From the sequence record PZ445524.1: DNA of 64,000 nt; one strand, given 5' to 3'. The position numbers were made by a program, and so were the translations under genes. This document shows positions 13,285-51,719 of the stretch, piece after piece; position 1 is the first letter of the stretch, and each line of letters begins with the position of its first letter. The notes under the pieces were generated by a model. That model worked only from the letters and a program-made list of their open reading frames with translations. It was not told where the DNA came from and ran no database searches. The stretch comes from a phage.

Positions 13285-13652
13285 TTAAATTTAATGGCTT
13301 GAAGAAGACTAATAACTCTCAAGCGGCTTCTTTCATCTTTAACTGTAAAAGAAAGAGGGTCACCAGATTTCATAGTGATAGTGCATCCAAAATCAAAATT
13401 TTCGGGAACTTCTTCGAAGAAGTCAAATTCTTCAGCATAAATTAGAACATTACTCTGCATACTGTGAAGAATTTTTCCATTATTTCCAGACGCTGTACTA
13501 ATCATCGTAACATTATGACCTTTCATATCTTCAACGATAAATTCGCTTGTAGATATTACAGCATTAATAGAACCATTCCTATAAATAGCAGACATTAGAT
13601 ATTTCTTTTCTTCGCCTTCGCGAATACGATATTTCTTACCGATTTTAAACAT
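13281..13652 (-). CDS. hypothetical protein (123 aa)
   Basis: track ORF starts at GTG 13658; first ATG at 13652. Confidence 0.6.
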   Translation of the reverse strand: MFKIGKKYRIREGEEKKYLMSAIYRNGSINAVISTSEFIVEDMKGHNVTMISTASGNNGKILHSMQSNVLIYAEEFDFFEEVPENFDFGCTITMKSGDPLSFTVKDERSRLRVISLLQAIKFK

Positions 13653-20819: not shown

Positions 20820-21439
20820 TCAACTACCTCAATATCATAAACTTTAAATGTTCCAAATGAATCGTGTAATTTTTCTTTTGAAATAGAAGTTATTCTATAC
20901 TTTCCAATTGGAATCATCCATTCTTGTTCACGCACAATCATCATTAAGTTATCAGTACGCTCTGAATCTAGCCCATCAGTATCTTCATACGTGTACTTGA
21001 ACTCAGTATTAGGAGAAGAAAGTATAATATCGCTGATATGGTCAGAATAATTAAAAGCTTTATCAGTTTTTAAGCGAAGTATTATTTTAGTAAAATATTC
21101 AGCATAAGAAAAAGAACATGCTGTGAGTAAACTAGTAGTAAATGAATCTACCCTGTTCGTTGAAAACACTTCTCCAACTTGTAAATCTTTAATAAGTTCT
21201 TCTGTTGATTTTGATATACCACGATATAACTGATAAGGCGATTTAGTTAAATGCTTTTTAATGATTTTATTCAATTGCCGATGAAGAGCTTCATTCTTTT
21301 TGGCTTCCATACATTGCCAAAGAACAGATTGCTCAAAGTCAGTAAATTTTTCACAGACTTTTTTATACATATCATATTGAAAATCAACGCTTTCAGCTTT
21401 TATAGATAACTGTTCAACATCTGCAAGATTAATAATCAT
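20816..21439 (-). CDS. modB: ADP-ribosyltransferase ModB
   Basis: 207 aa; paralog of ModA with LYRG and EQEWMIP motifs. Confidence 0.8.
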   Translation of the reverse strand: MIINLADVEQLSIKAESVDFQYDMYKKVCEKFTDFEQSVLWQCMEAKKNEALHRQLNKIIKKHLTKSPYQLYRGISKSTEELIKDLQVGEVFSTNRVDSFTTSLLTACSFSYAEYFTKIILRLKTDKAFNYSDHISDIILSSPNTEFKYTYEDTDGLDSERTDNLMMIVREQEWMIPIGKYRITSISKEKLHDSFGTFKVYDIEVVE

Positions 21440-21506
21440 GATAGCCTCCGTATACTTCAGAAGCTATCATATCATCGTTAGGAAGGAAAGTAAACAACTT
21501 TTTGAA

Positions 21507-21689
21507 TTATTTTGCCCAGGGAGCCCAGGGCGGAGGGTCAAGATGGTATGAAGCTAGTTCTTCTAGAAGAGCATCTGGGGCTTCAATTCCATAATTCTGT
21601 AATACTATACGGTACTCTTTCTTATAATCACTAGAATCATTCCGGATATTCGTAGAATGATTATCTTCTAACATCTCAAATAAATCCAT
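21507..21689 (-). CDS. hypothetical protein (60 aa)
   Basis: ORF track. Confidence 0.5.
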   Translation of the reverse strand: MDLFEMLEDNHSTNIRNDSSDYKKEYRIVLQNYGIEAPDALLEELASYHLDPPPWAPWAK

Positions 21690-21697
21690 ATTAATTC

Positions 21698-22168
21698 CTA
21701 GCGATAAAAACCAAAATAACGATTAGCTTCAATAATCTTTCTTTCTTCTTCGGACATTCTCCAACGTAGTCCAACATCAAAATGAGCCCAGACCATCTTA
21801 ACAAATGCGTTTATATCTTTAATATCTTCAATAATGAATGTTTTACTTTTAAAAGGCTGACTCGCTAATTTAACTTTATCATCTTCAAACAGGTCAAAAA
21901 GACCATATTCATGAGCTCTTTTATAGCCTTTAATAGTTAAAGCTTCAGAAGAAGAAAACGGTGAATCAGTATCCTGCAAAATATCTTCAGTATGCTTTAT
22001 AATTAGAATAACATTTTCTGGATATTTTCTTTCTTTTATATCTTCAATTAAAAAATCCGGATTTTCTGCTAAAGGAATAATTAATGAGCATTTTTTACCA
22101 AGAGTATTTACTGATTTACCTTCTTTAGACATGAATTCTACTGAATAATGTTTTGCTACTTCAATCAT
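21698..22168 (-). CDS. hypothetical protein (156 aa)
   Basis: ORF track. Confidence 0.6.
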
Positions 22169-22321
22169 GTGATTTCCTTTTGCCTACTAATGGACCATCG
22201 GGAATTTTGTTTTCCTGGATATATTTCTCATTTTCTTCCATCATTTTACGACCAATTTTAAGAAGCAAATCCATTGCTTCATTTGCTTTAGCTTTAGCCT
22301 CTTCTAACGTCATATCTTTGT

Positions 22322-22525
22322 TCATGATTTATCCCCATAGATGTCTCTCATCAATTTAAGCGCTGAGCGCTCTAATTTCTTTTCTTTCTCAGCACTAATC
22401 ATTGATTTCATCCATTCTTCCGATTCGTTCTGCATTTCTTTATTTGCTTGTTCAACCCAACCATCATCAATATACATTGAGTTTGGTCTATTGAACCATT
22501 CAAGAATTTTCTTCAGAACTTTCAT
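22322..22525 (-). CDS. hypothetical protein (67 aa)
   Basis: ORF track. Confidence 0.5.
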
Positions 22526-22997
22526 TTGTTTTACCTAAAACAATAGTAGGATTATCATCAAATTCATGAATTTTGAGTAAATTTGGATTTAAACTATTCC
22601 ATACAGAAGAAATAAAGTATGATAAAGCATCTTCACTCACAATTATAAACTTATTTCCTTTATCTATTTTCCAGTCATATACTGAATCGTACGAATAAAA
22701 AGATAAAGGATTACCATTATATTGTTCTGCGCTAACATTAATGTATTCGGATTTAGTAAATGCTTCAATTGCTCTAAACGGACTATTTGGCACAGTTTCA
22801 ATAATTCCGATCTTTTTAAGTTTTATTTCAACATCTTCTGGAACTGGCATTGAAACGAAATTTTCTACGAGATACATAGGGTTACAATAACCCTTATCAA
22901 TCACTACGGCTACAGTAATTGGAACATCTTTAGCAAACGACATGCTATTACTGCTAATATACATTTCAAACAAAATCGCTTCCATAATTTTCCTCAA
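22500..22997 (-). CDS. hypothetical protein (165 aa)
   Basis: ORF track. Confidence 0.6.
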
Positions 22998-23326
22998 TCA
23001 CAAGATGTAGATGAACAACTAGAATCACAAGAACTTCCACATGAATCGCCCGTCCATACATGAACAGGAACATTAGTATCATATGAATCAGAACTAGACT
23101 GCGCATTAGATGATGTAGTAGGTGTTGACCAGCGCCGAGGATTTTTATAATATTCTTGGGCTTCTTCATAAGTCATAGTAACTGCTTCTACTGTTCCATC
23201 TCCCATATAAACATATTCAACTACAGTTAAAGGAAGGTAGTCATTTGAAATAGGAACTACACCTTCCCCAGGAGTCGTAGAGAAAAAATCCGTAAAGAAA
23301 CTTTTAAACCAATTAAAGATAAACAT
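22994..23326 (-). CDS. hypothetical protein with Ser/Cys-rich C-terminal tail (110 aa)
   Basis: ORF track; tail [18 protein letters not shown]. Confidence 0.6.
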
Positions 23327-23532
23327 TACAAAAAGCCTCTTTTGAATTCAACTTGTTTATCGCCATAATCATATCGAATCTCTGCATTAAATTCGACAGA
23401 ACCATCGGCGTACATCATAAATGAATGCACAACAACTTCTGTAGACCATGGTTGTAGTTCATATTTCTTCATTACATGCCGTGAAATGATAATATCTAAA
23501 TCTTCATTCGGTTTAATCCAACGATTTAACAT
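23326..23532 (-). CDS. hypothetical protein (68 aa)
   Basis: ORF track. Confidence 0.5.
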   Translation of the reverse strand: MLNRWIKPNEDLDIIISRHVMKKYELQPWSTEVVVHSFMMYADGSVEFNAEIRYDYGDKQVEFKRGFL

Positions 23533-23598
23533 AGCGCTCTCCTCTATAAGATAATTCTATTATACCATACTCATTTTGGAAAGTAAACCGTTTAAATG

Positions 23599-23622
23599 AA
23601 AAAAGGACTCCCGAAGGAGTCC
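23599..23622 (-). terminator. rho-independent terminator downstream of soc
   Basis: minus strand GGACUCC-UUCG-GGAGUCC followed by UUUUUU. Confidence 0.65.
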
Positions 23623-23630
23623 TTGAATTA

Positions 23631-23867
23631 TTAACCACCTATTTCTGTTGGCGTAAACATTGCAGCATTCTTAGTTTTCCAGTCAGCTGCATCAGAAACT
23701 ACAGTAGAATATGCCGCCTTTTCAGAAGGAAAGGTCTGATAATGAGAATCTGCAATACGATGCTCGTTAGAATAGATTTCAAATGGAACAGAAACTTCCA
23801 TACCTTTAACTTCTTTACCTTCACCTGCTGGATGAGTAAAGGTCTTTATATTAACGAAACCACCCAT
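23631..23867 (-). CDS. soc: small outer capsid protein Soc
   Basis: 78 aa; HYQTFPSEKAAYSTV block recalled from Soc; late promoter TATAAATA and AAGGAG SD upstream. Confidence 0.8.
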   Translation of the reverse strand: MGGFVNIKTFTHPAGEGKEVKGMEVSVPFEIYSNEHRIADSHYQTFPSEKAAYSTVVSDAADWKTKNAAMFTPTEIGG

Positions 23868-23898
23868 AATAAACTCCTTTATTGTTTAATTACAGGTG

Positions 23899-23906
23899 TA
23901 TTTATA
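23899..23906 (-). promoter_or_regulatory. late promoter TATAAATA (gp55-dependent) for soc
   Basis: exact TATAAATA on minus strand about 30 nt upstream of soc ATG; overlaps stop codon of the HNH gene. Confidence 0.7.
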
Positions 23907-24753
23907 AACCATTTTCAAATCTCTTTATCATGTTTATATAATTTTCGTCAGGATAACCTAGGCTAACTGCTAGCTTTCTAAAATTGACATATTTAGGTTT
24001 GTTGTTATTAATCCATAATTCTCTAAGCTCTTTTTCATAATTCCATTTAAGTTGATTTCTGCGTGCAATTTTGCTTAAAGTTTTTCCTTTAGCTTTTAAA
24101 GCTTTTTCAGATGACTGTTTTAATTTTTGAATATTTAAAACTTCTTCTATAGATAAATTATTTTCCTTTGAATATCTTATGCAAAAATCTTTTACTATGG
24201 CTATTAGGCAATTTTTGTGAGTACCTAAAATTTCTGGATTATTTTCTTCAACTAAAATTCCCCAATACCTTCGATAGCGAGGCATATCCCTTGAAATCCA
24301 GTCATTATACCAAAAATCAAAGTTGGAATACATGAAAGATTTTCTTTTACGAAGAGTATCTTGGTTTATCCATTGCTCACGTTTATCAGCCCATAACTTA
24401 ATAGTAAAGTCTTTCTCTAAGTCAGAAAGCTTCTTAAATTGTGAGCTATTTACTGAGGTCATTCTCTGGAATGCATTCAGCAATCCAAATCTTCCAGTTG
24501 AACATAAGAGATAGTGAACATATATGTGTTGATATATTGGGAGATATACTCTATTCCAAGGATATATTTTAAAATCACTATACTCAGGAAATGCACATTT
24601 AGGAAGTATATGATGGGCTTCTGTTTTAGATTTAATGTGAGTGTTTAACTTATACTTATCTATAATTTTTAAATACTCATCTAAAAGTTCCCATTGCGGG
24701 AACTTTTCTTTAAGAGCAGATTTGAAATTAATATCCATTATCTTGACGTTCAA
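23902..24753 (-). CDS. free-standing HNH homing endonuclease (283 aa)
   Basis: HNH-like motif EAHHILPKCAFPEY similar to MobA/MobD-type motifs; basic C-terminal region; between soc and 56. Confidence 0.7.
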   Translation of the reverse strand: MNVKIMDINFKSALKEKFPQWELLDEYLKIIDKYKLNTHIKSKTEAHHILPKCAFPEYSDFKIYPWNRVYLPIYQHIYVHYLLCSTGRFGLLNAFQRMTSVNSSQFKKLSDLEKDFTIKLWADKREQWINQDTLRKRKSFMYSNFDFWYNDWISRDMPRYRRYWGILVEENNPEILGTHKNCLIAIVKDFCIRYSKENNLSIEEVLNIQKLKQSSEKALKAKGKTLSKIARRNQLKWNYEKELRELWINNNKPKYVNFRKLAVSLGYPDENYINMIKRFENGL

Positions 24754-25246
24754 AATTATGTTTGTTCTTCAAATAATAAAGTTTAAAGATTTCTTCAGCC
24801 GACATTCCAAGAGCAATAAATTTATTCATGAAAAAGTGAAATTGGTCAATCAGTTCAAATTTAATTTCAAGCTGATCTTCGGGAGATAAATCTTGAATTT
24901 TCTTGGATTGCATTTCAGAATAACGTTTCTTCCAAGGTTTCCATACAGCAGAAGCTTCTTTTTCACCATTACTCATACCACCAAGAGAAGTATATAGCTC
25001 GCGAGTTTCGTCTGCGATATAATCGTCTTGGTTTCGCAGCCAAGCAAGAACTTCTCCTGCAGTTTCAAGTGAATCGGGATGACGATTTGTTTCTGGTTTA
25101 TCATTAGCCAAACGAATCTGTAAATGCCGCTGCATATCAAGCATAACCTGCAATGGGTCTTTTTCATCACCGAGAATATCCCAGTATTCATTTTGAGCTT
25201 TATCAACACCTTCGATCAAATGAGCACATTCATTAAAGTGAGCCAT
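24728..25246 (-). CDS. 56: dCTP pyrophosphatase (dCTPase)
   Basis: 172 aa from MAHFNECAHLIEG; MazG-like; track N-terminal extension rejected because it runs through the RBS of an opposite-strand gene. Confidence 0.85.
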   Translation of the reverse strand: MAHFNECAHLIEGVDKAQNEYWDILGDEKDPLQVMLDMQRHLQIRLANDKPETNRHPDSLETAGEVLAWLRNQDDYIADETRELYTSLGGMSNGEKEASAVWKPWKKRYSEMQSKKIQDLSPEDQLEIKFELIDQFHFFMNKFIALGMSAEEIFKLYYLKNKHNFERQDNGY

Positions 25247-25317
25247 TATTTTTCCTTTCAATTCATGGGTTAGTAGATTAATTATACAATAAATATATAA
25301 AGCAATAAGGAGGACAT

Positions 25318-25518
25318 ATGGTACAAAAATTAATGGCACTTGTTGATGCCATAAAAGGTAATAAGAAACGTATAGCTTTTACTATTTCTGCTATGGTAGG
25401 AATTTTACTCTGGAACTTTATTTTATCACCTGTTGCAATTGCACATGGTATTAATATTCCAGTAGTTACTCTTGATACATTCGTAGATTTAGCATTTGCT
25501 TTAGTTGGGTTAATTTAA
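25318..25518 (+). CDS. small hydrophobic protein (66 aa), plus strand
   Basis: perfect SD AAGGAGG at 25307-25313, 4 nt before ATG; intergenic between 56 and 61; two hydrophobic segments. Confidence 0.6.
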   Translation: MVQKLMALVDAIKGNKKRIAFTISAMVGILLWNFILSPVAIAHGINIPVVTLDTFVDLAFALVGLI

Positions 25519-26543
25519 ATCTTAGCATATTTAGATAGCCGCATTTTAGCCATCAACCCCTGGGCAATATTATTTTTCATATATTCCATAATTTGTTCAG
25601 GGGTTGCACCTTCCTTTCTAATCATATCATTAACATCTTTTGATTTCCAGGGAGATTTATCCCAAAACATAACCCTTTCTCCTGCATCAACTAATTTAGT
25701 CATCCGTTTAATAGTGTCAGGGTGACGAGGTTCATTATCTAAAACCCACACTCGTCTATCTTTAAATGGAACAACTTCTAGGTCTAATTGACCACCCGTA
25801 ATAGCTATACCATTTTCAATAAAAAGTGAATCTATAGGTCCTTCTAGAACATATACATCACCATCTTTAACTCGTTCGACTCCATAGATTTTTGTTGCTT
25901 CAGGATAAGCTTTGATGGTGATATATTTTTGAGGAGCATCTTTCTTTAATGCACGTCCTTGAAAAGACTCAGCTTTTCCATTAGCATTATAAATTGGAAT
26001 AACAAGACGAGGCTCAGAAATTTCCTTTTTATATGTTCCCGGTGCTATGCTATTAACCAATTTAGGCCATTCGGTTGTAAACCAAAGATATTTCCATTTA
26101 TCCTTTGGAATACAACGAGCTTTTACATATTTTATAATTGGATGGTCTTCCGCCAGTTTATCTAATCTAACACATGACGGAAGAGATTTAATTATTTTCT
26201 TCTCAGGTTGTTTAGGAAGTTCTTTAGGTTTTTCTACTGGACGACTTTTACCTTTTTCTTTTCTTATTTCAAAGATATACTCACGATATAAATCAGGTTC
26301 AAACTCCTTTAAATATATTCCGATTGGTGCATGATAGTTACAGTTATAACAATGAATATTTCCTTCATTATTATCACCATAATACCATCCACGGGCTTTA
26401 TTTTGGTCGGTTTTTGAATCTCCACACACTGGGCATCTAAACCGTAATTTAAAAGTTGAACTATTATTTACTTGTGTGAATTTAGGTAAATGAGCTAATG
26501 CACGGTATGCAAACTCATTATCAATCCAAGGTATTGATGACAT
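25515..26543 (-). CDS. 61: DNA primase
   Basis: 342 aa; N-terminal zinc ribbon CPVCGDS...CYNC; T4 gp61 length. Confidence 0.95.
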   Translation of the reverse strand: MSSIPWIDNEFAYRALAHLPKFTQVNNSSTFKLRFRCPVCGDSKTDQNKARGWYYGDNNEGNIHCYNCNYHAPIGIYLKEFEPDLYREYIFEIRKEKGKSRPVEKPKELPKQPEKKIIKSLPSCVRLDKLAEDHPIIKYVKARCIPKDKWKYLWFTTEWPKLVNSIAPGTYKKEISEPRLVIPIYNANGKAESFQGRALKKDAPQKYITIKAYPEATKIYGVERVKDGDVYVLEGPIDSLFIENGIAITGGQLDLEVVPFKDRRVWVLDNEPRHPDTIKRMTKLVDAGERVMFWDKSPWKSKDVNDMIRKEGATPEQIMEYMKNNIAQGLMAKMRLSKYAKI

Positions 26544-26545
26544 TT

Positions 26546-26710
26546 TTACTCTTCTTTTTCTTTAGATTCCTCTTTTTTCTTTTTAGGAATCTGTTCAGGA
26601 CCTTTATTTACTACAGCGCCTGATGTTGTTCCAGTAGAGATATTTTCAGGACTACCACCTGAATCTCCAGCGACCATATCTTCTTTGATAAATTCTTTAT
26701 ATGTTTTCAT
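26546..26710 (-). CDS. small charged protein (54 aa)
   Basis: hand-translated MKTYKEFIKEDMVAGDSGGSPENIS...KKKKEESKEKEE; GAGG SD upstream. Confidence 0.5.
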   Translation of the reverse strand: MKTYKEFIKEDMVAGDSGGSPENISTGTTSGAVVNKGPEQIPKKKKEESKEKEE

Positions 26711-26711
26711 A

Positions 26712-27338
26712 TTAACCTCTATTCATAAAAGCATTAAAAATTTGGTCATCAATAGAAACATTTACTTTAGACTGTTTTTCGGATGGTAATTCATATCCAC
26801 ATATTACAATTTTGTGATCAATATCAAAATACACAGAAGCAATATGATTAATGATATTTTCAGTGAAGTCTAAATCAACATCAATGTCTTTTTGACCAAA
26901 GCCCAAAGGATAAATAATGCGAGTAATTCGATTATCTTTAACAAAGATTCCACCGACATACTCTGTGCTGCGTTTAAAGTCTACACGCCGACGAAATGAA
27001 AAATATTCAGGCTCTTTATGAGCTCGGCTCATAGGGCACAACGAATAACTAGAATAAGAAATGTCAAATCCTACGCCTTCAATATGAACTAAATTGTCAT
27101 GATTAAACCAATTATAATCATATGCCAAGTCCATTAGATTGTCATATGTGAAAGGCACCGGATTAACATCATTGGTCACAAGCATATAATTAGCAACTGC
27201 TATAATTTCATTATTTTTAACGAATACAAACCGTGATTGATGCGAATGGCCTGGACCTGCGTTTTCACGATTAATGATATAACACTGGGCACCTTTATAT
27301 TTGTACGTGTCTTTACACTTGTGCATTTGATAAAGCAT
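26712..27338 (-). CDS. hypothetical protein (208 aa)
   Basis: ORF track. Confidence 0.6.
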   Translation of the reverse strand: MLYQMHKCKDTYKYKGAQCYIINRENAGPGHSHQSRFVFVKNNEIIAVANYMLVTNDVNPVPFTYDNLMDLAYDYNWFNHDNLVHIEGVGFDISYSSYSLCPMSRAHKEPEYFSFRRRVDFKRSTEYVGGIFVKDNRITRIIYPLGFGQKDIDVDLDFTENIINHIASVYFDIDHKIVICGYELPSEKQSKVNVSIDDQIFNAFMNRG

Positions 27339-38974: not shown

Positions 38975-39661
38975 TTAAAAATCGTGGGTAGAATCAGCTT
39001 CAAGAGCTACTACATAATTCGCATGTTCACCTTCAAATTTAGCAGCACCTTGTTTACCTTTTGCCCAGAGCAGAAGTTTATAATTTCCTGGTTGCATTTT
39101 CATATTTGCCATATTGATAATGAAATTAAATGTATTTTCACCATCATAATCACCAAGAGTCAAAGAATATTTAACACGGGTCAAAGCAGAATCTTCTACT
39201 TTATTAAAACCGTTAATTACGATTTTACCTTCTTTTACCGTGATAGCAATTGTATCAATTTGCAGACCACGAGATACACGCAACAGTTGTTGAAGGTCTT
39301 CAGCTTTAATTTCAGTAACAACAGATGCTACCGGGAATGGAATTGGTTTATTAGGAGCAACTACTGTACTCGGATCGGCTGCTGGCCAAAAAATTGTTGA
39401 ACGAGCATCAGCAATTTTAATATTTCCATCTTCTGACTGGGAAATTTCTGCATCATCATTAACTAGAGACAGAATACCGAGAAAACCGTTCAAATCGTAA
39501 ATTGCTACATCAAAATCAATAACGTCAGAAATATTTGCTTCCGCATAAGTTGTACCATTAACTGCACGAGTCATAATAAATTGACCTGATTTAAGCATAA
39601 TGCCAGAGTTAATAGTAGCGAAATTTTTAAGCAGAGCAGTAGTATCTTTAGACAGTTTCAT
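38975..39661 (-). CDS. 45: sliding clamp
   Basis: 228 aa, T4 gp45 length and position. Confidence 0.95.
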   Translation of the reverse strand: MKLSKDTTALLKNFATINSGIMLKSGQFIMTRAVNGTTYAEANISDVIDFDVAIYDLNGFLGILSLVNDDAEISQSEDGNIKIADARSTIFWPAADPSTVVAPNKPIPFPVASVVTEIKAEDLQQLLRVSRGLQIDTIAITVKEGKIVINGFNKVEDSALTRVKYSLTLGDYDGENTFNFIINMANMKMQPGNYKLLLWAKGKQGAAKFEGEHANYVVALEADSTHDF

Positions 39662-45619: not shown

Positions 45620-45838
45620 TTATTTCTCTAATATAAAATAAAAATCATCATCTGTTAAATGATACCGATAGTTTAATTCTACACCATTAGATTTAAAAGC
45701 GGTATCATACGGATTTTCTGGATCAATATCAATGTCAAGAGCTAAAACTTCCCTGAGATACATTTTAAGTAAATAGGGAATAGCTTCAACTTCAGGTATT
45801 TCTTCCAAGAATCCGGAGAGGTTAATCGTTAGCCTCAT
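45620..45838 (-). CDS. hypothetical protein (72 aa)
   Basis: ORF track. Confidence 0.5.
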
Positions 45839-46379
45839 ATAAAAAATCCAAACTAGGAGAATCGTCTACAACACTTTTCTTTTCAGCCCCCGGTGTTCTA
45901 TAGGTTGATTCTTCGTAATGCGTCATTTTATCGTAGATGTCTTGAATAAAAGTTTCATCTACTAACGCAACCATATCGTCGTCACGACTGTCATAGACAT
46001 TGTGAACGAAGTAACTATATTTCTTTGCAACTTCCTTACGTTCTTTTTTAATACGTTGGACGAATGCATTAAAACAAGCTTGAGTTATATACGCATGTGG
46101 GTTTTTATATTTCGTTTCATCAAAATTATGAAGCCCCTTAATAGAAGCTTCTATACCATCTGCAATCATTTCTTGTTTCCAAGACTGGGTGTATCCTGAA
46201 AAGTTGAAACGTTTAGATAAGCCTTCTGCAATAAGCATAATGGCTAATCCGATAGTATCATTCTGACGAACTACTTTATTTGGGTCTTTATTATTTGCTA
46301 ATTCTGTTTTCCAATCAATAATAGCTTGTAAAAGCTCTTTATTGTTTACGTAATTATATTTAGGCTTAGTTTCTGACAT
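45822..46379 (-). CDS. 55: late-transcription sigma factor gp55
   Basis: 185 aa from [10 protein letters not shown]; region-2-like sigma motif; T4 gp55 length. Confidence 0.9.
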
Positions 46380-46457
46380 TTTCACCTCTTAGCTCAATTC
46401 ATAGATCTATTATATCATAATATTTGAAGATCTATCTTAAAGCATAGAGGATATCAG

Positions 46458-51208: not shown

Positions 51209-51678
51209 TTTAAACTCTTTCTAAGCTGCTTCTTGAATGAAGCTATTAATTGTGTTTTGGTGTCAGATTCATTATATTCAAATCCTCTTTGAAGCATCTC
51301 GGCCATCATTTCCTCTTTTCCTAAACGAGAAAATTCCTTTGATTTATCTCCAACAAAGTTAGGGTGAATATTATTTTGGGTGTAATCGGATTTTAAATAA
51401 GTAAGTAAATTTTCTAACCATTCAAGATAATCAACACCTTGTCCCTTTAAGCCAGAACGATTAAATTTATGCTTCATTTGACCTTCTGCGGCATTGCATA
51501 GATTACAAAGCAATCCACGTACCTTTCCTGCTTTTGGTCCATTTAATTCATGGTCATGATCGAGGTGATTAGCTTGAACATCAGGATTTAGTTCTCGTTG
51601 GCAAATTAAGCATTTACCGTTTTGTGCATCATAAAATTTCTGTTTTTCTTCTTTATATAATTTGCCAGTCAATAACAT
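51205..51678 (-). CDS. 49: endonuclease VII (Holliday junction resolvase)
   Basis: 157 aa; zinc-binding CxxC...C motifs; T4 gp49 length. Confidence 0.9.
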   Translation of the reverse strand: MLLTGKLYKEEKQKFYDAQNGKCLICQRELNPDVQANHLDHDHELNGPKAGKVRGLLCNLCNAAEGQMKHKFNRSGLKGQGVDYLEWLENLLTYLKSDYTQNNIHPNFVGDKSKEFSRLGKEEMMAEMLQRGFEYNESDTKTQLIASFKKQLRKSLK

Positions 51679-51719
51679 AATAAACCCTTACCTTAAATAG
51701 ATAAGGGTATTTATTATTT

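Follow-up and report, generated by a model that had tools for sequence, protein, structure and literature searches.

The soc gene of this phage is very probably transcribed from a T4-type late promoter of its own, with an internal start that would bypass a hairpin masking the soc AUG and with a terminator shared with transcripts arriving from upstream. The promoter element is an exact copy of TATAAATA on the minus strand at 23906-23899, which corresponds to -13 to -6 by T4 late-promoter numbering. We analyzed this element within a 64-kb stretch of phage DNA (the window) and in the soc loci of related phages. A first-pass annotation of the window had described an exact minus-strand TATAAATA about 30 nt before the soc ATG, overlapping the stop codon of the gene upstream. 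We found the motif there, with 31 nt from motif to ATG, and the TAA of the upstream ORF (23904-23902) is formed by positions 3 to 5 of the motif. The 3' end of that ORF reads ...GAA AAT GGT TTA TAA, and the context of the motif is GGT TTA TAA ATA.

The nearest public genomes to the window are those of Tequatrovirus phages (97-98.5% identity), and the window is from a T4-like phage of this group. All plausible gene ORFs of at least 120 aa in the 64 kb are on the minus strand, a layout that fits the early/middle arm of T4. The soc ORF itself (78 aa; 23867-23631, minus) encodes the small outer capsid protein and matched the Pfam family Soc, PF16855, with 71.6 bits (cut-off, 27; E value, 7.8e-20). 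Its product is 100% identical to the Soc proteins of RB14 and PhiZZ30; thus, the window carries an RB14-type allele, which is 47% identical to T4 Soc. The Shine-Dalgarno (SD) sequence AAGGAG named for soc in the first-pass annotation is located at 23879-23874 (minus), 6 nt before the ATG at 23867.

As in T4, soc is on the early-gene strand and is flanked by gene 56 and mrh.2. Gene 56, the dCTPase/dUTPase gene (25246-24728, minus), has a C-terminal variant ending ...KNKHNFERQDNGY and is preceded by a MotA-type middle promoter, TTGCTTTA-N12-TATAAT (GCTT-N13-TATAAT; 25305-25281, minus), the equivalent of which is annotated in SA20RB and T2. Farther upstream is the primase gene 61 (26543-25515, minus). 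A 66-aa plus-strand ORF (25318-25518; PHROG 2024, function unknown) is found between genes 61 and 56, where the window has no dam gene, unlike T4 and PhiZZ30. Downstream of soc, a T4 early-type promoter (GTTTAC-N17-TGgTATAAT; 23588-23559, minus), annotated as such in SA20RB and fPS-2, precedes the mrh.2 homologue (23532-23326, minus). The window also encodes two late-transcription factors on the minus strand, a homologue of the late sigma factor gp55 (45822-46385; PHROG 234, 3.7e-69) and the sliding clamp and late transcription activator gp45 (38975-39661).

In T4, gp55-dependent late promoters consist of an 8-bp TATAAATA box at -13 to -6 and need no -35 element (PMC2988020). Exact copies of this box are scarce in the window: we counted 2 on both strands together, against 11.1 ± 3.2 expected (approximately five-fold depletion), and the copy before soc is the sole exact one on the coding strand. 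Such a depletion would be expected if stray late promoters were selected against in the early arm. The other exact copy (13580-13587, plus) is antisense within a minus-strand ORF (13658-13281) and could be a late promoter for antisense RNA or have survived by chance. Variants with one mismatch occurred at chance level (212 found versus 223 expected in the window). We also considered a sigma-70 reading of the motif and rejected it: there is no -35-like hexamer 16 to 18 nt away on the minus strand, the sole nearby consensus match is on the plus strand (23914-23942), and promoter-like matches in the region occur at the frequency seen in shuffled sequence. In an Rfam scan of 21000-27000, all matches were below the threshold and attributable to chance.

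To examine the conservation of the motif, we took soc loci from GenBank phages and IMG/VR, and 45 loci with a recognizable soc gene were reduced to 23 distinct upstream contexts. Either TATAAATA or AATAAATA ends 26 to 34 nt before the soc ATG in all 23 contexts, which include Tequatro-, Dhaka-, Jiaoda-, Winkler-, Karam-, Gelderland-, and Moonvirus phages. The only variation in the motif is the A at -13 that distinguishes AATAAATA, and this is the commonest natural variant among T4 late promoters (9 of 50 T4 sites; PMC2988020). The homologous site carries a late-promoter annotation in T2 (AF374619) and SA20RB. The DNA just 5' of the motif is unrelated between contexts, and the sequences become similar precisely from the first T of the motif onward, a pattern that is, at the level of sequence comparison, the signature of a functional left boundary. 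For instance, the upstream neighbor of the promoter is the segF gene in T4, soc.2 and soc.1 in SA20RB and T2, an HNH endonuclease ORF in the window, and gene 56 itself in PhiZZ30, where it abuts directly (tga tga TATAAATA). In Kha5h, a second exact TATAAATA is present ∼25 nt upstream, within the 3' end of the HNH gene; its counterpart in the window (23931-23938, minus) reads TATAAACA.

This pattern of conservation bears directly on one alternative, namely, that TATAAATA before soc is a chance AT-rich match with no role as a promoter. The genome is AT-rich, and near matches to the box are as common as chance would have them. However, the exact motif is depleted rather than frequent, by our own arithmetic the probability of a chance match 26 to 34 nt before one given ATG is roughly 1e-3, and the position is kept in every context across genera. 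We consider a chance origin to be effectively refuted by this conservation, and we assign it next to no probability. The proposal in the first-pass annotation that a late promoter for soc is embedded in an early gene block is supported by the right sequence, strand, and distance, conservation across genera, and the presence of genes for gp55 and gp45.

The RNA just downstream of the motif can form a leader hairpin (23898-23861, minus), absent from the first-pass annotation, in which CACCUGUAAUUAAAC pairs with GUUUAUUAUGGGUG. The soc AUG and codons 2 and 3 are paired in this hairpin, and the SD sequence is left in the loop. From the -13 to -6 numbering (PMC2988020), the late transcript is predicted to start at a G at 23893 (minus), 6 nt past the motif and within the 5' arm of the hairpin. 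RNA beginning at or upstream of the motif folded with -12.8 kcal/mol (z score, -3.2), while RNA beginning at the predicted late start folded with only -2.7 kcal/mol (z score, -0.1). The same comparison for the T4 soc leader gave -8.6 kcal/mol for read-through RNA and -3.9 kcal/mol for late RNA. Compared with T4, the hairpin in the window uses a different register, reaches codons 2 and 3 (CACC/GGUG), and is the stronger of the two read-through folds. The segment between the motif and the predicted start reads CACCU, with two A/T positions of five, where T4 soc has AAUCA; T4 late promoters are usually AT-rich between box and start (PMC2988020). The C-rich bases of this segment form the 5' arm of the hairpin and are conserved in relatives.

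Among 68 gene leaders in the window, that of soc is the third most structured. The second is the leader of gene 49 (endonuclease VII; 51678-51205), where AATAAATA is followed by a hairpin of -15.9 kcal/mol (51678-51715, minus) pairing both SD and AUG, and which appears to follow the same design of a late promoter inside a hairpin. The most structured leader belongs to a 207-aa ADP-ribosylase-like gene (21439-20816) and has its SD and AUG within a long stem (-20.8 kcal/mol; 21428-21478, minus); no late-promoter motif was noted there.

Sequestration of the soc start is widespread among the relatives, although it is achieved in different ways. Folding each sequence separately, we found the AUG or the SD to be sequestered in 21 of the 23 contexts via three different pairing solutions: the register seen in the window, a T4-type register (CAUGUAAUU/AAUUACAUG), and, in several lineages besides that of Jiaodavirus KP179 as well as in KP179 itself, a CUCCU/AGGAG pairing of the SD. 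In Karamvirus relatives, the leader hairpin is weak at best (-3.0 kcal/mol). It is important to note that column-wise covariation gives no support for the hairpin, because lineages use different pairing registers: in a mixed-register alignment of 16 sequences, 62.7% of cells were paired for one register versus 64.5% in shuffles, and the other register was only marginally above shuffles. The support for the hairpin therefore comes from the folds of single sequences and from a handful of compensatory pairs, including replacements of A-U by G-C at columns 10/48 and 17/41. For T4, section 29 of PMC3014915 lists soc with e, 49, and I-TevI among the genes whose SD and/or AUG is sequestered in an inhibitory RNA helix.

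The first-pass annotation regarded soc as a self-contained late transcription unit, and this description applies to its 3' side but not to its 5' side. As that annotation proposed, soc is followed by a hairpin and six U residues, formed by AAGGACUCC-UUCG-GGAGUCCUU at 23624-23603 and six T at 23604-23599. The whole is an intrinsic terminator (23624-23599, minus) with a 9-bp stem, a UUCG loop, and T6 (-15.1 kcal/mol; z score, -4.7), and it is followed by the early promoter of mrh.2, at which transcription restarts. The terminator is kept in 34 of 34 distinct downstream contexts with compensatory changes in the stem, the variants of which include GGACUCC/GGAGUCC, GGAAUCC/GGAUUCC, GGAACC/GGUUCC, and GGGAACC/GGUUCCC. 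In contrast, we found no terminator between the HNH ORF and soc. Therefore, soc is also the last gene of a 56-HNH-soc early/middle transcript, and the UUCG terminator serves the late soc RNA as well as the early/middle transcripts from upstream. Since soc is present on read-through RNA, its late-only expression would depend on the hairpin that masks the AUG. The soc gene of T4 is likewise described as a late gene that is also found on long polycistronic early/middle transcripts (PMC2988022, citing Macdonald, Kutter and Mosig 1984, Genetics 106:17). Two further T4 papers, one on time-resolved omics and one on the NAD-cap, contained nothing specific on soc.

Read-through into soc may also be limited at the other end of the HNH ORF. 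A terminator-like hairpin, AAAAGUUCCC-GCAAU-GGGAACUUUU (24707-24683, minus), is located 30 to 55 nt into the ORF (-18 kcal/mol; z score, -5.0) and is annotated as a terminator in fPS-2. By analogy with segF and mobE, for which attenuation by terminator-like hairpins is described in PMC2988022, this hairpin probably attenuates read-through into the HNH gene and soc. A comparable hairpin, GACGCC-GAAA-GGCGUC-UUUU, occupies the corresponding position in T4 segF.

Due to the missing terminator between the HNH ORF and soc and the good middle promoter before gene 56, soc must be expected on earlier transcripts, and one could argue that most soc expression comes from read-through that begins at the gene 56 middle promoter and at early promoters upstream. 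The motif would then be conserved but of minor use, for example, as a stop-codon context or an AT-rich spacer. We think this very improbable for several reasons. In relatives that lack an endonuclease gene, the motif lies between genes and is nevertheless invariant, even though everything upstream of it differs. Further, masking of the AUG by the leader hairpin is specific to RNAs that start upstream of the motif, and the strong hairpin at the 5' end of the HNH ORF should lower read-through. Moreover, reviews call T4 soc a late gene and describe the translation of its long transcripts as repressed by sequestration of the ribosome-binding site (PMC3014915 and PMC2988022).

We therefore prefer expression from a dedicated late promoter, and by homology to T4 we infer how promoter use, start site, late timing, and translational masking would fit together. 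Early and middle transcription would cover gene 56, the HNH endonuclease gene, and soc as one unit, from the MotA-type middle promoter to the UUCG-loop terminator past soc. On this read-through RNA, the sequence just after TATAAATA (CACCUGUAAU...) would pair with AUUAUGGGUG and bury the soc start codon, and therefore little Soc would be made early. After the onset of replication, RNA polymerase with gp55 (plus gp33 and the gp45 clamp) would read TATAAATA at 23906-23899 and start at about G23893, in the 5' arm of the hairpin, to give a monocistronic RNA of ∼295 nt. This late RNA would be unable to form the hairpin, and its SD and AUG would therefore be free. It would end at the same UUCG terminator, and Soc would be made late and in the amounts needed for capsids.

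The ORF that ends in the promoter is a free-standing Mob-type HNH homing endonuclease ORF of 278 aa (24738-23902, minus), with its ATG in the last codons of gene 56. The label HNH, which the first-pass annotation had given to this gene, agrees with matches to PHROG 655 (homing endonuclease; 1.1e-32) and PHROG 12434 (HNH endonuclease; 5.3e-10) and with the RefSeq annotations of near-identical genes. The ORF is 42% identical to MobC over residues 17-121, and an invariant block (KTEAHH-LPK..FPEY..WN.V.L..H...H) is common to this ORF, MobC, and the T6 endonuclease. No HNH domain was matched in the 278 aa by Pfam, NCBIfam, or PDB sequences, and MobC itself is likewise without a Pfam HNH match. An AlphaFold model from the single sequence was unusable (pLDDT, 39). 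As judged from these sequence matches, the ORF belongs to the Mob group of HNH homing endonucleases. Its start overlaps gene 56 by 11 nt, and no SD was found in the sequence upstream of the start. Given this overlap, the lack of an SD, and the internal terminator-like hairpin, translation of the HNH gene is expected to be weak.

Across phages, the HNH gene is distributed sporadically, at one conserved slot and across lineages. Most of the 56-HNH-soc segment was carried by only 28 of 654 matching phage records. The gene occupies the same slot in Tequatrovirus, Moonvirus KM16, and a Klebsiella phage, and a degenerate copy is found in Dhakavirus 005. In a limited literature search, we did not come across a published account of an HNH gene at the 56/soc slot.

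A comparison with T4 indicates that both edges of this slot are fixed. The HNH ORF of the window and the T4 GIY-YIG gene segF are unrelated, but both overlap gene 56 by 11 nt, starting at ATGGATATTAA within its last codons, and both stop at the TAA within the soc promoter. The overlap of stop codon and promoter is thus not peculiar to the phage studied here. With an HNH gene, it was seen in the window, fPS-2, and a Klebsiella phage, and nearly so in Moonvirus KM16, while the HNH remnant of Dhakavirus 005 ends ∼100 nt upstream at a TGA of its own. Over the final 36 nt of gene 56, T4 and the window do not differ. The gene 56 ending ...KNKHNFERQDNGY, which is the source of the endonuclease ATG, is found in HNH-bearing genomes and T4, and in two genomes whose slot holds a SegF-like ORF the ATG is created by different gene 56 endings. 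Most endonuclease-free phages have a gene 56 ending ...KNAENFARQDRGY, and two phages with an apparently empty slot have a near-identical ending, ...KNQHNFERQDNGY. Taken as a sequence pattern, this distribution suggests co-conversion of the 3' end of gene 56 with the endonuclease cassette.

Between the fixed stop of gene 56 and the fixed soc promoter, the interval is hypervariable, with at least seven states of occupancy among the loci compared (L001-L066). Gaps between the gene 56 stop and the soc ATG were about 40, 83, 167, 238, ∼400 to 420, and ∼585 to 600 nt; with an endonuclease gene in place, they were ∼695 nt (segF type) or ∼860 nt (HNH).

The recurrence of the overlap with two unrelated endonuclease genes (segF and the HNH gene) raises the question of whether it has a function. 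Ribosomes ending at the UAA at 23904-23902, 3 nt before the hairpin, could melt its 5' arm and so tie a low level of Soc synthesis to translation of the endonuclease, or the overlap could guard the endonuclease gene from deletion. By our own reckoning, a spacing of 3 to 5 nt would place the hairpin inside the ribosome footprint, and, according to PMC2988022, host promoters embedded in endonuclease genes favor their retention. We nevertheless consider a function of this kind unlikely. A simpler account is an ORF inserted at a fixed boundary and running on until it meets an in-frame stop, the HNH remnant of Dhakavirus 005 stops well before the promoter, and translation of the endonuclease should be weak in any case. 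We prefer to see in the overlap the outcome of insertion at a fixed boundary and not a regulatory device; an inserted ORF would run from an ATG in the last codons of gene 56 to its first in-frame stop, which would be the TAA of the resident promoter.

A broader version of the same idea, to which we give a low but somewhat higher probability, treats the 56/soc junction as a fixed docking slot in which unrelated endonuclease ORFs, having neither start nor stop codon when inserted, borrow the ATG of ATGGATATTAA, which a variant gene 56 3' end creates, and the TAA of the promoter. The occupants would be the GIY-YIG SegF in T4 and the Mob-type HNH endonuclease here and in at least three other genera. 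Terminating ribosomes might then transiently unmask soc, so that a leak of Soc would be coupled to translation of the endonuclease.

Much of the arrangement at soc is already known in T4. T4 soc has TATAAATA ∼30 nt before its ATG, followed by a hairpin that pairs the AUG, as in the window, and the terminator (GGACUCC-UUCG-GGAGUCC) with the early promoter downstream is exactly the same in both. For the T4 late promoter and leader arrangement, PMC2988022 and PMC3014915 cite Macdonald, Kutter and Mosig 1984 (Genetics 106:17). The same reviews describe T4 e, 49, and I-TevI as genes in which the early/middle read-through RNA sequesters the SD and/or AUG, as with soc. For I-TevI, PMC2988022 adds that the late promoter is placed so that the late RNA is without the 5' arm, the late start thus bypassing the hairpin. 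Unlike the arrangement at e, 49, and I-TevI, the soc hairpin of the window pairs the AUG and codons 2 and 3 and leaves the SD in the loop.

The HNH cassette also resembles known systems. Like segG (at gene 32), segA, segE, mobB, and mobC, it has no promoter of its own and would be run from upstream host promoters, and it has in common with other free-standing endonuclease genes an 11-nt overlap with the upstream gene, a terminator-like hairpin at the 5' end, and a host promoter kept at its edge (PMC2988022). However, the HNH ORF overlaps the host promoter by only its last codon and stop, in contrast to the segG, segA, segE, mobB, and mobC cases. The upstream endonuclease is a Mob-type HNH protein in the window and the GIY-YIG protein SegF in T4, and such use of one slot by different endonuclease families in different phages is comparable to the reported replacement of mobC and mobE by SegH and Hef (Sandegren et al. 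2005).

Thus, the late-promoter mechanism of soc, its position, and the stop-codon overlap were already known from T4, and novelty is confined to the HNH type of the endonuclease that fills the slot and to the view of the cassette boundary gained by comparing phages. In this phage and its relatives, the soc late promoter can confidently be annotated at this site, together with the leader hairpin and the shared terminator, and the finding has little significance beyond correct annotation. What the comparison adds is that a soc cassette of promoter, AUG- or SD-masking hairpin, and terminator is kept across several genera of Tevenvirinae by means of at least three pairing solutions. The left edge of this cassette is a hard insertion boundary, where two unrelated endonuclease families end their reading frames in the TAA of the promoter, and this boundary could be of interest to those who study selfish endonucleases in host transcription units and to those who engineer phages for Soc display.
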